NCBI GenBank assembly: GCA_963743635.1
Contig: CAVUQO010000003.1
Coordinates: forward strand, 608,001-672,000
Origin: Candidatus Babeliales bacterium
GTDB lineage: Bacteria; Babelota; Babeliae; Babelales; Vermiphilaceae
Reading direction: 5' to 3'
DNA: 64,000 bases
Both the position numbers and the translations under genes were made by a program. Of this stretch, positions 47,753-52,106 are shown in pieces (the first letter of the stretch is position 1; every line of letters starts with the position of its first letter). The notes under the pieces are model-generated. The model had not been told where the DNA came from, did no database searches, and saw nothing but the letters and a program-made list of their open reading frames with translations.

Positions 47753-50700
47753 TTAATTTAAAACATTTGTATAATCGAAGGTTTTTAAAGCGGTTTCATT
47801 GATGTCACGTTCTGATTTTAATGCGTGAACAAAGGTGAATTTCCATTTTTGTTCCATGGACATAACATTAAATCCAAGGCGATGCAGCAATAGCTTGAAA
47901 GCATCGTGAGGTATGCGCGAGGTGGGCTCAGCGATCCAGAGGTGCCCGTCAAGTTTAAGGCATCGATGGGCTTCTCGAATATAGTCAATGGAATTTGTTC
48001 CCATTAGGGATAAAGAGAAGACAGCGGCGTCAAGTAAGCTGTCCGCTATAGGAACGCGTTTCATGTCACACGCAACCACCTGATCACTAATCGCTATGTG
48101 GTCAAAAGAGTAAACCTGATTTTGCAGCTCTTTAGCTAAGAATGCTTCTCCGCATCCGAAATCTCCAATGATCCAAGAGGGTCTTTTTTTAAGCCAGATT
48201 ATAGCTTCTTGGTATGGAACAATAGGCCACTCATGCCTTTCTTCTCGGTAAGCAGCATGATAGGATTCCCACTCTGCGGGATTCTTGAAAAACCTTTCAT
48301 GTGTTTGTGTGCTAGAACTACTATTGATGCGTTGATTCATCAGTGTTAATGTGCCCAATTTTCGTTTATTGCTGATCGCTATATCGTTCACCAGGGGTAT
48401 AATAATTTTGCGCCGTTCAATTGTCTTTAGATCGCCACGATCAAGTTGTTGAATCCAGGTTGTTAGGTATTCTTGAGCCTGCATTGCTGCTATATGGTCT
48501 TCTTCAGGAATAATGCCATCAACGATCATATCAGCCATTTTTCGTTTCGACTTTATTATATTCAAACGTGCTTCACAGTAAGAAAAACGATTGCCGTTCA
48601 TGTTAAAAAAAGTAAGTGGAAATATGACGTTGACAAAAGATTTTTTTTGTCCCGGTCGATACACTCTTGCTTGTAGTTGTTCAAGGATAGCATATGTCCA
48701 AGGCAGCGAGTTAATAATCAATGTATTACACACTTCTTGTAAACCATCTATGCCCGTTGAGATGCAACTAGAAGCAATCAATACATCAGCATCGCCGTTT
48801 TTGAATGTTTGAAGCCCTGATTTGTCACTTTCACTGTAAATACATACTCGAAGGCCACGTTGTTCAATTGCTCTGCGAAGTAATTCTAAGACTTTTCCTT
48901 TGTTGTGATACTGATTATAAATAATGGTTTTTTCTTCTAAATTGTTAAGAATAAAAGGAAGCTTTGCTTCTGTTAAGACTTCATCTAGTTCGGCAGAATA
49001 TTGCCCTACGCGTCGGCGGCCTTTTTCATCGAGTACAATAGGAGCAATGCGAGAAAGTAATGAAGTTGCATCAATTTCTTCTGTTATGTGATTGAGAACG
49101 CAAGCCTCTCCATCGGGGGTCGTTACCAGAGTCTTATCACGGATACCATGAATCACAAGCTTTTGATGGAGCTTTATGTTGTTGGAAAAGGTCTTTCTAG
49201 TAGATAAATCATTATGTTCTTCGCCTGTTAAGAGCTCAATCAGTTTTTTGCCTTCTGTAATATTGTTGATAACAGGCGTACCAGTCATTGCTAGGATATG
49301 AATGTTTTCATTCTTTTGACCCGCTTCATATCGAAAGGCATCAATAGTATCTTTACGTTTAGACGGAGTGCTTTCATCTCTTTGTTTTGCGTAATGCACC
49401 TCATCAATGATAATAAAATCAATGACGTGATCCTGTAAAAATGCTTGTAATTTGGATGAAGCGTTGCGTTGTTGAAAGAACTCGTAATTTAAAATTACAT
49501 AGAGATTTTTAGCAGAACTGTATTTTTTTAAATTCAGTTCTTTTATAAGAACTGTGCTGTCTGGATATATTTGCCTAAAGTCTTTCAGCCAAGTGCCGAT
49601 GACATTATTAGGACAGCATACAACTGTAATTCGCGCATTAATAACTCGGCTTGCTAAAATGGCTGCGAGAGTTTTTCCTGCTCCCGGTCCCGACCAATTA
49701 GCTATTTTTTTTCGATCTCTCACTAAACAGGCTAAGAGTTTCTGCATAAGACGTGGGGGATGCTTAAAGCTGTATCCTTTTGGAATTATTAACTCTTTTG
49801 TTTTTTGATAATCGCATAGGAACGTGTCTTTAGCAGATTTATCATACAAGCCTTCGCTATGATACTGTTCAAGTGCCTGAGTTGCATTTTCTTCGTTAGC
49901 AAAAGCGCATCGCCAAATTTTATCTATGGCTGATTTAATAAGATATTCAATAGCTTCAATATCGCATCCCGCGAGTATATGGGGGTTATTAAGCAAACTA
50001 AGGGTTTCGTGTATCGTCGTGCATGCATTGCTTCTATGATTATCATTTCTATCAGCGTTAAGACCCATATCGTTGAAAGCTTTCTGTAAACGATTTAGCT
50101 TTTCCTCTTGACTTTCCATATCTGAGGTTTCATCGATAAGTTCATCGACTAAGGAAGGCTGTGCGTTGGCAAATTTTTGAAGTTCTTGCAAAGGAATTTT
50201 GTCTTTTAGAATTGCTTGGACAATTAATTTACCTTTGCCTGCACAATCCAATAATCCATTTGCTTGCTGCATGATAACGTGCAATTCCATAATGGTCATT
50301 GTAAGTAAGTGAGAATCAAGACCTCGTAGAAATAAACGAATTTTATCTATGGTCCAGCCCGAATTGCATAAGGGACAGCCGGTACCATTTCCTGTTCGAT
50401 CGCAACAAGCAGCTTGCCATTCATGTATTGGATCCTTAATGCATAGCCACCATACCTTTTTATTACTTCCTGCGCTAACTTCAGTAGCCTTTAGAGACTC
50501 ATTTTTTATAGGATGCCATTCTTTTGTAATATCAGGATGCGTAATTGCTAGACTGTTTTTTGGTAAGACTTTATGACCAGAGCAAAAAGGGCAACCGTAT
50601 TCATTCTTAGCTCTATCTACACACCTCGTTTGCCACTCATGGTCAGGGTCGTTAAGACATTGCCACCATATTCTTTTGGTGCTTCCAGGAACTATTTCTC

Positions 50701-51442
50701 TAGGTGATAATTTGTTTTTTTGAGGATGCCATTCAGGGACAAGATGGGGGTAAGTTAGGGCGAGAGAAGTCTCTAGTGTTGGTTTTTTGCCAGTACAAAA
50801 GGGACATTTGCTTGTTTTTTTTGTACGATCCTTGCACGTAGCCTGCCACTCATGACTTACATTTTTTAAGCATAACCACCAAACTTTTTTACCACTTCCG
50901 GGTGTGATATTTATGGGAGAGAGAGGTTCGTTCTTAACGATATCCCATTCTTTTGCAATATCGGGATACAGAAAACTTAAACTACTTTCTAAAGAAACCT
51001 TTTTATTATCACAAAAAGGACAGTTTTGGCCTTGTATGGTGCGGTTGCCAACTGCAGCCTGCCATTCATGAGCAGAATTTATTGGACAAATCCACCATGC
51101 TGAATATGCACTGCCACGAGTAACATCGTACGGAGACTTCTTGCCATTTTTAGTAGGGTGCCATTGTGTAGCTAATGCAGGGTATAGCGTTGCTAAACAA
51201 TTGGTTATATGGACGCGGCGACCAGAACAAAAAGGGCATTTGCTTTTGTTTTTTCCTGTGCGATCGCTGCAGGTTGCTTGCCATTCGTGGGCAATGTCTG
51301 TACTGCATAGCCACCAATATTTTGTATTGCCTCCTGCAGTTATCTCATTCGGGGTTAACTCACCGTTTTTAGTGGGATGCCATTGCAACGTAAGTTCGGG
51401 GTGGGAGATAGATAAAGTAATTTTTGTTTTTTGCTTATTCAT
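47753..51442 (-). CDS. Zinc-ribbon repeat (x5) + SNF2-like SF2 helicase + RRP8-like (Methyltransf_8) methyltransferase fusion
   Basis: 5x W.P.KN..WW.C..HEW..CPFC; GPGAGKT, DEVH, TGTP, QLQARVYRPGQ; IGDFGCGEA, VYSFD, AVFSLSLMGTN, LWIAE. Confidence 0.85.
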   Translation of the reverse strand: MNKQKTKITLSISHPELTLQWHPTKNGELTPNEITAGGNTKYWWLCSTDIAHEWQATCSDRTGKNKSKCPFCSGRRVHITNCLATLYPALATQWHPTKNGKKSPYDVTRGSAYSAWWICPINSAHEWQAAVGNRTIQGQNCPFCDNKKVSLESSLSFLYPDIAKEWDIVKNEPLSPINITPGSGKKVWWLCLKNVSHEWQATCKDRTKKTSKCPFCTGKKPTLETSLALTYPHLVPEWHPQKNKLSPREIVPGSTKRIWWQCLNDPDHEWQTRCVDRAKNEYGCPFCSGHKVLPKNSLAITHPDITKEWHPIKNESLKATEVSAGSNKKVWWLCIKDPIHEWQAACCDRTGNGTGCPLCNSGWTIDKIRLFLRGLDSHLLTMTIMELHVIMQQANGLLDCAGKGKLIVQAILKDKIPLQELQKFANAQPSLVDELIDETSDMESQEEKLNRLQKAFNDMGLNADRNDNHRSNACTTIHETLSLLNNPHILAGCDIEAIEYLIKSAIDKIWRCAFANEENATQALEQYHSEGLYDKSAKDTFLCDYQKTKELIIPKGYSFKHPPRLMQKLLACLVRDRKKIANWSGPGAGKTLAAILASRVINARITVVCCPNNVIGTWLKDFRQIYPDSTVLIKELNLKKYSSAKNLYVILNYEFFQQRNASSKLQAFLQDHVIDFIIIDEVHYAKQRDESTPSKRKDTIDAFRYEAGQKNENIHILAMTGTPVINNITEGKKLIELLTGEEHNDLSTRKTFSNNIKLHQKLVIHGIRDKTLVTTPDGEACVLNHITEEIDATSLLSRIAPIVLDEKGRRRVGQYSAELDEVLTEAKLPFILNNLEEKTIIYNQYHNKGKVLELLRRAIEQRGLRVCIYSESDKSGLQTFKNGDADVLIASSCISTGIDGLQEVCNTLIINSLPWTYAILEQLQARVYRPGQKKSFVNVIFPLTFFNMNGNRFSYCEARLNIIKSKRKMADMIVDGIIPEEDHIAAMQAQEYLTTWIQQLDRGDLKTIERRKIIIPLVNDIAISNKRKLGTLTLMNQRINSSSSTQTHERFFKNPAEWESYHAAYREERHEWPIVPYQEAIIWLKKRPSWIIGDFGCGEAFLAKELQNQVYSFDHIAISDQVVACDMKRVPIADSLLDAAVFSLSLMGTNSIDYIREAHRCLKLDGHLWIAEPTSRIPHDAFKLLLHRLGFNVMSMEQKWKFTFVHALKSERDINETALKTFDYTNVLN

Positions 51443-52106
51443 GATGTGATCTTCTTTTGACAGTTCTATTTATGCTGGCACATATAGGGCATCCAGTGCC
51501 ATTGGTGCGGTTGTTTATGCTTGCGAGCCATTCATGTGCCGGATTGTTATTGCAGATCCACCACACTTTTAAACGACTACCAGCAGTGACATTGCTTGGC
51601 GTTAAGTTATCATTTTTAACTGTGTGCCATTCTTCGGTAAGTATTGTGTGTACATGAGCTAGAGAGTTTGAAATTGATGCCACGCGACCACTACAAAAAG
51701 GACAACCGCTTTGCTTGTTTGCTCGATTAACACAAGCAGTCTGCCATTCATGTGTTTGATCTTTAGGACACCGCCACCATACTCTTTGTTTGCTTCCAGC
51801 CGTGATGTCATAGGGAGATAATGGTTCATTCTTGGTAGGATGCCATTCGCTGGAGAGGGCGGGATGCGTCGTTCGTAAACAATTTGAGATATGAGCCTTG
51901 CGACCAGAGCAAATAGGGCATCCGCTTTTTTTGAGAGTCCGATCTTTACATGCAGCTAACCATTCATGTTTGAATTCTAAACAGATCCACCATACTTTTT
52001 TGTGGCTATATGCAGGCACTGTTTGTGGTGTAAGGGGAAGGTTCTTAGTTGGATGCCATTCGCGTGACAACCAGGTCTGGTCATCAATAAGAATTTTATA
52101 TTTCAT
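51435..52106 (-). CDS. Zinc-ribbon repeat (x3) protein (DUF4379-like treble clef)
   Basis: Three EWH..KN..WW.C..HEW..CP.C repeats; overlaps the start of the helicase gene. Confidence 0.8.
   Translation of the reverse strand: MKYKILIDDQTWLSREWHPTKNLPLTPQTVPAYSHKKVWWICLEFKHEWLAACKDRTLKKSGCPICSGRKAHISNCLRTTHPALSSEWHPTKNEPLSPYDITAGSKQRVWWRCPKDQTHEWQTACVNRANKQSGCPFCSGRVASISNSLAHVHTILTEEWHTVKNDNLTPSNVTAGSRLKVWWICNNNPAHEWLASINNRTNGTGCPICASINRTVKRRSHHE

Follow-up and report, generated by a model that had tools for sequence, protein, structure and literature searches.

A zinc-finger, Swi2/Snf2-type motor and Rrp8-like methyltransferase protein on a small insert of a Candidatus Babeliales genome, member of a family carried by mobile elements

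The 64,000-nucleotide stretch of DNA analysed here (the window) belongs to a Candidatus Babeliales bacterium (GenBank assembly GCA_963743635.1, contig CAVUQO010000003.1, positions 608,001 to 672,000) and carries two overlapping genes on its reverse strand. The large gene (47753..51442 in the list of open reading frames, ORFs) encodes a 1229-amino acid enzyme that combines an array of zinc fingers, a helical domain, an ATPase motor and a methyltransferase. The small gene, upstream of it, encodes a 223-long protein with three more fingers when read from its ATG; an alternative TTG at 52175 gives 246 amino acids. The family to which the 1229-amino acid protein belongs, as a complete member, is large and uncharacterised, and is carried by phages, plasmids and genomic islands. 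The enzyme gene reached this genome on a 5.6-kb insert that a 60-nucleotide direct repeat delimits. The parts of the two genes are the following:

51435..52106, reverse strand: gene of the three-finger DUF4379 protein (Pfam; junction unchanged in contigs of four runs from two studies; analogues at the related loci L015 and L018)
50366..51442, reverse strand: array of five DUF4379 treble-clef zinc fingers, amino acids 1-359 of the enzyme (Pfam, repeat alignment, comparison of the N-terminus with L021, L018 and L015)
49748..50365, reverse strand: family-specific all-helical domain, amino acids 360-565 (kept in 45 of 45 aligned relatives; AlphaFold2 model)
48608..49747, reverse strand: Swi2/Snf2-type two-lobe ATPase motor, amino acids 566-945 (Pfam, Foldseek, motifs)
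48362..48607, reverse strand: helical linker between motor and methyltransferase, amino acids 946-1027 (AlphaFold2: helices and lower-confidence segments)
47753..48361, reverse strand: Rrp8/nucleomethylin-type S-adenosylmethionine (SAM) methyltransferase domain, amino acids 1028-1229 and stop codon (Methyltransf_8, match to 2ZFU, motifs)

The carboxyl-terminal domain matches Methyltransf_8 (PF05148) over amino acids 1028-1209, well above the gathering score (E 3.3e-42; 145.3 bits against a cut-off of 27). Its homology to human RRP8 (2ZFU) is found in sequence (E 3.8e-30) and, with Foldseek, in fold (target template-modelling (TM) score 0.80, root-mean-square deviation 2.7, 32% identity). An earlier reading made from the sequence alone had reported superfamily 2 helicase motifs and a carboxyl-terminal methyltransferase, and every motif it quoted could be located. 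The methyltransferase has YHAAYR at 1061, WPIVP at 1072, DFGCG at 1094, SFD at 1112, CDM at 1125, FSLSLMG at 1142 and LWIAE at 1168; DFGCG is invariant across 45 relatives, and the Rrp8-specific lid motifs (YH and W..P) are invariant too. A motif search of the whole protein gives no [DNS]PP[YFWH]. The domain is thus Rrp8-like and not a DNA methyltransferase of the DPPY/NPPY type, as the sequence-only reading had it. The profile searches that it proposed, for Methyltransf_8, SNF2/ResIII and DUF4379, all return their families. Its statement that there is no nuclease motif agrees with Pfam, which detects no nuclease family in either protein; the array is hence not followed by a nuclease, as it would be in a homing endonuclease.

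The motor is of the Swi2/Snf2 type. Pfam places ResIII (E 1.3e-10), SNF2-rel_dom (30.9 bits, cut-off 24.9) and Helicase_C (33.2 bits, cut-off 23.5) within amino acids 566-931, and GPGAGKT at 585, DEVH at 680, TGTP at 720 and QLQARVYRPGQ at 922 were judged against the Snf2 consensus for Walker A, Walker B and motifs III and VI. An AlphaFold2 model of amino acids 355-1229, built from a 45-sequence alignment (predicted local distance difference test, pLDDT, 80.1), leads to the same assignment. Among the Foldseek matches listed, 46 of 48 are Swi2/Snf2 remodellers or their prokaryotic kin (ISW1/ISWI, Snf2h, INO80, CSB, Chd1, Mot1, RapA, SsoRad54-type), the Snf2-type ones reaching a target TM score of 0.71; the other two are 2ZFU and the RNA sensor LGP2. 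This kinship predicts translocation on double-stranded DNA.

The domain of about 205 amino acids that precedes the motor is modelled with confidence (pLDDT 88.7, predicted TM score 0.83) and is present in 45 of 45 aligned relatives whatever their amino-terminal array. It has no match in the PDB at Foldseek E<=1e-3 and no usable match in the ESM Atlas; in a VIA wide search generic helical repeats score highest, with a Z of 7.9, from which novelty of the fold does not follow. In the linker between motor and methyltransferase, K966, D975, G976, P979 and R1010 are invariant or nearly so.

Pfam finds five copies of DUF4379 in the enzyme (E 1.2e-87) and three in the small protein (E 1.9e-60). The genes overlap by 8 nucleotides, the TAA stop of the small one lying 5 nucleotides past the ATG of the enzyme gene, in agreement with the three-repeat gene overlapping a gene with five more repeats that had been described from the sequence. 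These eight fingers are the sole DUF4379 matches in the 1.45-Mb genome. Their pairwise identity is 37-55% and the repeat alignment has the C-H-C-C ligands kept in 8 of 8, which argues for old, individually maintained units and not for recent duplicates. Fingers are spaced by 250 nucleotides over the gene junction against 213-216 nucleotides at the other sites, and this raised the suspicion of a frameshift. A split gene, a frameshift or an assembly slip was rejected on three grounds: contigs of four runs from two studies span 51435-51442 with 0 differences and 0 gaps; the enzyme starts with the usual amino terminus of the family, a short lysine-rich lead followed by HPEL..QW, aligned with the starts of L021, L018 and L015; and L015 and L018, from two other Dependentiae metagenome-assembled genomes (MAGs), have two genes as well. 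The layout in the window is a true two-gene arrangement.

The separate upstream genes of L015 and L018, located about 20 nucleotides before the enzyme gene, encode a helix-turn-helix (HTH) of the HI1420-type antidote (dnstrm_HI1420, 6.7e-15 in L015 and 7.8e-11 in L018) together with two DUF4379 fingers. This HTH, expected in the upstream gene of a type II toxin-antitoxin pair of the HI1420 type, is absent from the three-finger protein of the window even when translated from the TTG start. By comparison with these upstream genes, the three-finger protein is probably a DNA-binding accessory or regulator. An apparent split of the enzyme gene at another locus, L032, is due to a masked stretch of X.

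A search of about 5.8 billion proteins yields 1911 matches to the enzyme at E<=1e-3 among 8000 candidates scored. Among the matches listed, PF05148 is found in 118 of 120 and PF14311 in 120 of 120; these proteins are 1085-1880 amino acids long and, the window's own entry aside, share 38-53% identity with the query, most of them 39-48%. With each prokaryotic species represented by a single genome, a relative is encoded in 340 of 493 candidate stretches. Neighbourhood, finger count and taxonomic group were surveyed at the best 80 of these 340 loci. They come from Chlamydiota, Dependentiae, Ca. Berkiella, Planctomycetota, Verrucomicrobiota, Cyanobacteria and their non-photosynthetic kin, Myxococcota, Gemmatimonadota, Chloroflexota, Thermoplasmata and Nitrosopumilus. 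Full-length relatives are found on 3 of 72,556 plasmid records. Relatives are also encoded on ten IMG/VR viral contigs, where the fronts vary and the core stays the same; genes for terminase, portal, primase, homing endonuclease, QueC-like protein and DNA methyltransferase accompany them, a setting of uncultured tailed phages. The 50,697 records of isolated phages contain 0 true matches and 2 weak generic helicase matches.

PADLOC and NCBIfam have no model that covers the family. The helicase part gives partial weak matches to DrmD, BrxH and PbeA in PADLOC (at most 35 bits, for DrmD) and to DrmD in NCBIfam (26 bits against a cut-off of 610). A search of the open literature, with subscription journals and supplements outside its scope, gave no paper on this architecture. 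When the 587 ORFs lying up to 5 kb from the 80 loci are clustered, no conserved partner gene emerges, the largest cluster being shared by 5 loci of close cyanobacteria (four Microcoleus and one Phormidium-like), so the enzyme is a stand-alone unit in most genomes. Pfam analysis of the 150 nearest-neighbour ORFs of 47 loci identifies integrases, a resolvase, ParA/ParB, IS200, NERD, HNH, SIR2, HerA, PIN and Uma2, mixed with housekeeping genes.

The conserved core begins at one common point in relatives with all types of front, and the front itself is highly variable. Arrays have 0-14 fingers as counted with a regular expression, which undercounts one cyanobacterial subgroup where Pfam finds 3-4. 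In finger-less forms INT_rpt repeats take the place of the array, in others a Sigma70_r4 HTH or a YdaS-like HTH is added, and HA (helicase-associated) modules are also found. Among 14 close pairs, array identity trails core identity by 10 points or more in 9 and exceeds it in 0. L017 and L020, for example, share 48% identity in the array against 88% in the core and have 5 and 6 fingers; L035 and L052 share 60 against 90%, with 6 and 4 fingers. These array identities are approximate, as the global alignment of repeats may slip register. The front appears from these comparisons to be a swappable, fast-diverging recognition module, in line with the modular recognition array proposed from the sequence. 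Such arrays, with their exchangeable INT_rpt and HTH units, could embody a modular code for recognition, which would be of practical interest.

DUF4379 modules are also associated with nucleases. In passages of PMC12350094, DUF4379-like domains in arrays are interpreted as probable DNA-binding modules, similar to NUMODs, of homing endonucleases from phages; for marseilleviruses, the corresponding part of PMC5513546 reports four DUF4379 copies joined to a restriction endonuclease domain. Two Simkaniaceae MAGs have, some 1 kb past the enzyme gene on its downstream side and in convergent orientation, a gene (L010:11922-14162 and L011:13366-15444, both reverse strand) for an I-TevI DNA-binding domain with 6 DUF4379 fingers; the L010 copy has also a weak match to REase_MTES_1575. 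Its domains make this gene look like a homing endonuclease beside the methyltransferase. The longest array was seen in a cyanobacterial relative (L060:6452-12268), with 14 DUF4379 fingers. Pfam scores for TAL_effector, DnaJ and DUF1818 on this array were read as spurious, being sums of sub-threshold pieces.

Around the two genes of the window, the insert and its borders comprise the following features:

47246..47305, no strand assigned: left copy of the 60-nucleotide repeat, derived by duplication and decay from the 3' end of the ABC permease gene (repeat search)
47369..47665, reverse strand: 98-amino acid ORF downstream of the enzyme gene, island cargo (ORF list)
52204..52530, forward strand: orphan Trypco2-domain gene, on the opposite strand to the enzyme (PF19631, E 9.1e-9)
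52541..52571, forward strand: perfect 15-nucleotide inverted repeat just 3' of the Trypco2 gene (100% complementary, 1-nucleotide loop)
52591..52788, reverse strand: 65-amino acid ORF (ORF list)
52929..52988, no strand assigned: right copy of the repeat, supplying the final 19 codons and the stop codon of the ABC permease gene (52929-53990, reverse strand; repeat search, ORF list)

The two repeat copies are 87% identical, similarity ends at their borders and there are 2 copies in the genome. The 5.6 kb between them hold the 98-amino acid ORF, the enzyme gene, the finger gene, the Trypco2 gene and the 65-amino acid ORF, with a GC content of 0.402 against 0.438 in the flanks. No true homologue of the enzyme is present in 40 related genomes of 0.8-1.7 Mb (24 of the same family and 16 of the same order), two of which give helicase-only matches (E about 1e-4). 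A genome scan with PF05148 also picks up unrelated methyltransferases, as it does in 9 of 14 control genomes, and is therefore uninformative on distribution. The neighbouring genes have a distribution of their own: the SulP gene is patchy (4 of 15 family genomes), G011 having it alone in common, and the ABC permease gene is found in 7 of 15. The mobility claimed by the sequence-only reading is borne out by the repeat-bounded insert, the lack of a true homologue of the enzyme in these 40 genomes and the existence of relatives on plasmids and phage contigs.

Neither the ORF list nor Pfam gives an integrase within the insert. The Trypco2 domain is defined in conflict systems and, as stated in a section of PMC7159879, normally accompanies a trypsin-like peptidase gene; the ORF list has no such gene within the insert. 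The hairpin at 52541-52571 looks like a candidate terminator. Promoter and terminator scans give a signal no higher than in shuffled controls. The 98-amino acid ORF has no match in Pfam, PADLOC or NCBIfam and does not cluster with neighbour ORFs of the 80 related loci; the 65-amino acid ORF has no NCBIfam match. Scans of 44-56 kb and 40-60 kb detect no Rfam family or tRNA. Outside the insert, 2.3 kb from the enzyme gene, lies a gene for a 376-amino acid leucine-rich repeat (LRR) protein (44328-45458; LRR_8, E 1.8e-35).

A tree of 45 cores (quick IQ-TREE, SH-aLRT support) places the window in a fully supported clade of 11 rows. Ten of them are the window itself or are labelled Chlamydiota, Dependentiae/Babeliales or Ca. 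Berkiella; the 11th is labelled Verrucomicrobiae, yet is 97% identical to a Chlamydiae-labelled copy. Forms with INT_rpt and with fingers are intermixed inside this clade. Named homologues of ThrS also assign the source genome to Dependentiae/Babeliales. Dependentiae/Babeliales, Chlamydiota and Ca. Berkiella live inside protists, and the clade provides a clear case of gene sharing among protist-dwelling bacteria.

The origin of the methyltransferase was addressed with this domain alone. A scan of 1.84 billion representatives gives 2825 matches at E<=1e-3, 1771 at E<=1e-10 and 242 at E<=1e-30. A FastTree was built from 140 domains, drawn from 166 proteins after leaving out 23 with fewer than 166 aligned positions and three near-duplicate cluster members. 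A single clade of 26 rows (support 100, stem 0.77) contains all eight rows first known as eukaryotic Rrp8, and its rows named later are eukaryotic in nine cases and prokaryotic in none. The helicase-fused row P0366 joins this clade weakly (support 79), on a long branch. Helicase-fused forms or fragments account for the remaining 113 rows. The window is nested among them in an 8-row helicase-fused clade, and the named helicase-fused members are all prokaryotic. The window domain does not share a clade with eukaryotic Rrp8, as orthologues would. From this topology the family and eukaryotic Rrp8 appear to stand on opposite sides of a well-supported split, and the tree lends no support to a recent transfer out of a protist host. 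Being unrooted, it does not show which way the ancient link runs. The position of the family across the split, on a Snf2 scaffold, bears on the origin of Rrp8, that is, on the source of a nucleolar, chromatin-linked methyltransferase. The sequence-only reading stands for its domains, modular array and mobility, and lacks support for the exchange with protist hosts and for giant viruses, given that the viral relatives found adjoin terminase, portal and other tailed-phage genes.

Comparison with known systems situates the enzyme among several of them. Eukaryotic Rrp8/nucleomethylin is the N1-methyladenosine (m1A) methyltransferase of 25S/28S rRNA. It belongs to the same Pfam family, with about 32-41% identity to the window domain, the fold similarity given above and a common DFGCG and YH...W.P lid. 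The eukaryotic proteins differ in being about 290-580 amino acids long, with no helicase part found by phmmer, and in forming the separate clade with support of 100, whereas the window domain sits on the helicase-fused side to which named prokaryotic members belong and whose core is also found on phage contigs. DNMT5 of fungi and algae has, like the enzyme, a Snf2 ATPase and a methyltransferase in the same chain, and ATP hydrolysis gates its methylation; it is a C5-cytosine methyltransferase, eukaryotic and chromatin-based, and lacks a finger array.

Restriction-modification systems of Type I, III and ISP, DISARM (DrmD with DrmMI) and BREX also couple an ATP-dependent superfamily 2 motor to DNA methylation in the distinction of self from non-self. 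The window enzyme differs from them by the lack of a nuclease partner, of a conserved neighbour and of a (D/N)PP(Y/F) motif, and neither conserved partners nor a full-length model match links it to these systems. Homing endonucleases with DUF4379/CapR-like modules resemble it by the tandem treble-clef units of about 60-70 amino acids, variable in number, at the front of a mobile nucleic-acid enzyme (passages of PMC12350094 and PMC5513546); its catalytic end is a motor with a methyltransferase and not an EDxHD/Vsr, HNH or REase nuclease.

The closest parallel is the DarB-type methylase-helicase dyad of polyvalent proteins, which, in the relevant passages of Iyer et al. 2017 (PMC5512222), is defined as an EcoKI/TaqI-like N6-adenine methyltransferase N-terminal to a Swi2/Snf2 module; its proposed role in conflicts is the ATP-dependent methylation of incoming DNA, for which it would need to track along DNA at the expense of ATP. 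Both have a SAM methyltransferase and an ATPase of the Swi2/Snf2 clade in one polypeptide, and both are found on phages, plasmids and integrated elements. The window enzyme has instead a Methyltransf_8/Rrp8-type methyltransferase, the reverse order with the motor preceding it, and a zinc-finger, INT_rpt or HTH front in place of LPD36, and it is not part of a giant multi-enzyme protein. These differences make it an analogue of the DarB dyad and not a member.

We tentatively favour the hypothesis that the enzyme is a DNA-tracking, ATP-driven methyltransferase of mobile elements, analogous to DarB of phage P1 and built from different parts, our confidence in it staying somewhat below the halfway mark. 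The front array would dock the enzyme on DNA, the Snf2 motor would track along the duplex or distort it so that bases become accessible, and the methyltransferase would then mark the exposed bases. A plausible site of the mark is on the Watson-Crick face, for instance adenine N1, the atom that Rrp8 methylates in rRNA. DNA as target is suggested by the finger array and by its HTH and INT_rpt alternatives in relatives, tracking or distortion of the duplex by the Snf2 motor, and methylation of a ring nitrogen buried in the base pair by the Rrp8-type pocket; this burial would explain the need for a motor. The enzyme could act like the DarB-type methylase and Swi2/Snf2 dyads of phages and plasmids in conflicts over DNA, its mark either protecting the DNA of the element or disabling that of a rival. 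If it acts on DNA, it would be a second, independently assembled motor-coupled methyltransferase of mobile elements, with a catalytic domain so far tied to the writing of m1A in rRNA, and it could reveal a modification missing from the list of phage and plasmid marks. The chance that its chemistry on DNA is new is modest. We consider it quite improbable that the family is the first natural enzyme to write a Watson-Crick-face methyl mark (N1-methyladenine or similar) into DNA, with a Snf2 motor opening the duplex, programmable treble-clef fingers choosing the site and Rrp8/nucleomethylin of common origin with it.

Several observations weigh against a DNA-methylating role. To our knowledge, all characterised relatives of the methyltransferase methylate rRNA. 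Fingers of this family can sit on RNA: mt-SAF33, a DUF4379 protein found as a sequence match to those of the window, is described in a part of PMC8784144 as bound at the immature rRNA helices h22/h23 during assembly of the trypanosome mitoribosome. On a phage contig (L106:6442-8459) a stand-alone 159-amino acid Methyltransf_8 ORF adjoins a T4 Rnl1-like RNA ligase, with a second RNA ligase and a DNA ligase close by, which suggests an RNA-repair setting. A toxic mark would be expected to come with an immunity or repair partner and none is conserved; the genome, 85% complete, has no match to the AlkB family (PF13532). The 17 of 150 neighbour ORFs that match PADLOC models at E<=1e-8 are in many cases generic hits, and the count is no more than suggestive. 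The window copy is also atypical, with a branch of 1.19 against a median of 0.24 in the core tree and changes in 24 of 164 columns of at least 93% conservation, more than in any other row (12 at most) except the Nitrosopumilus outlier; it may be under relaxed selection.

The contacts of mt-SAF33 with immature rRNA and the RNA ligase of L106 would fit an RNA-directed enzyme, whose fingers bind structured RNA, whose ATPase remodels RNA or a ribonucleoprotein such as the ribosome and whose Rrp8 domain writes m1A, thereby tuning, protecting or poisoning translation in conflicts. The 38-41% identity of the methyltransferase to named eukaryotic Rrp8, its nucleomethylin-like fold, the invariant Rrp8-specific lid and a tRNA nucleotidyltransferase gene close to the relative of L101 go in the same direction. 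We consider such an enzyme unlikely all the same, with 46 of the 48 Foldseek matches listed being Swi2/Snf2 double-stranded DNA translocases against a single RNA-sensing helicase, LGP2. The alternative fronts (Sigma70_r4, YdaS-like HTH, INT_rpt, HA) are typical DNA binders, and the patchy, island-borne distribution with no true homologue found in the 40 relatives speaks against a housekeeping role on rRNA. A dedicated single-gene antiphage defence, in which the array recognises invader DNA and the motor and methyltransferase disable it, for instance by replication-blocking methyl lesions, would account for the rapid diversification of the array and for the location of the gene on an island. 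The Parachlamydiaceae copy (L014:8598-17510) is flanked by PDC-S11 and a full-length Dsr1 (SIR2; 1183 bits), PDC-S03, PDC-S17, HerA, NERD, HNH and SIR2 genes are neighbours elsewhere, and the orphan Trypco2 gene of the insert has a domain from conflict systems (section of PMC7159879 cited above). Tailed-phage contigs encode the same core, however, and the enzyme has no PADLOC or NCBIfam model, no nuclease in Pfam and no conserved partner; this makes a dedicated defence a doubtful explanation.

An origin in protist-dwelling lineages for 10 of the 11 rows of the clade, the Dependentiae-like source genome and the LRR protein gene 2.3 kb away could evoke an effector directed at the host, acting on its chromatin or its rDNA/rRNA and mimicking nucleomethylin together with a remodeller. 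This is highly improbable: most of the family is found in cyanobacteria, planctomycetes, verrucomicrobia, myxobacteria, archaea and phages, the tree does not derive the methyltransferase from host Rrp8, secretion has no support in this analysis and gene transfer in a shared niche suffices to explain the clade. The long branch, the 24 altered columns and the absence of an integrase inside the insert are what a decaying cargo would leave, the island having lost its integrase and the enzyme drifting to loss here with no present function. The 14 sequencing runs listed for this DNA include no RNA run. Against such decay, which we hold to be distinctly unlikely, the frame of 1229 codons is open, the catalytic motifs are all intact, the zinc ligands are kept in 8 of 8 fingers and contigs from two studies agree on the junction sequence. 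Conservative substitutions (F/Y, I/V, S/T, W/F) make up many of the 24 changes, and fast protein evolution is expected anyway in reduced host-dependent genomes. The DNA-tracking methyltransferase of mobile elements remains the reading that we retain, with the reserve expressed above.

Some relatives show arrangements of their own. At three loci from two phyla (L011:12622-13401, L022:9960-10919, L027:4806-5525) a gene for a DUF5677 protein adjoins the enzyme gene; this protein could be a candidate partner within a subgroup. On a 152-kb phage contig (L099:4491-11223) genes for a GIY-YIG homing endonuclease and for a motor with methyltransferase are flanked by a full QueC-like gene on one side and by the C-terminal fragment of a QueC-like gene on the other, which looks like a cassette inserted at a gene of the 7-deazaguanine pathway. 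A low-GC viral contig (L107:5214-8660) encodes a different fusion, in which a ResIII/DEAD helicase at the N-terminus is followed by an HA domain and, at the C-terminus, by Methyltransf_8, and points to Methyltransf_8 having been joined to motors more than once.

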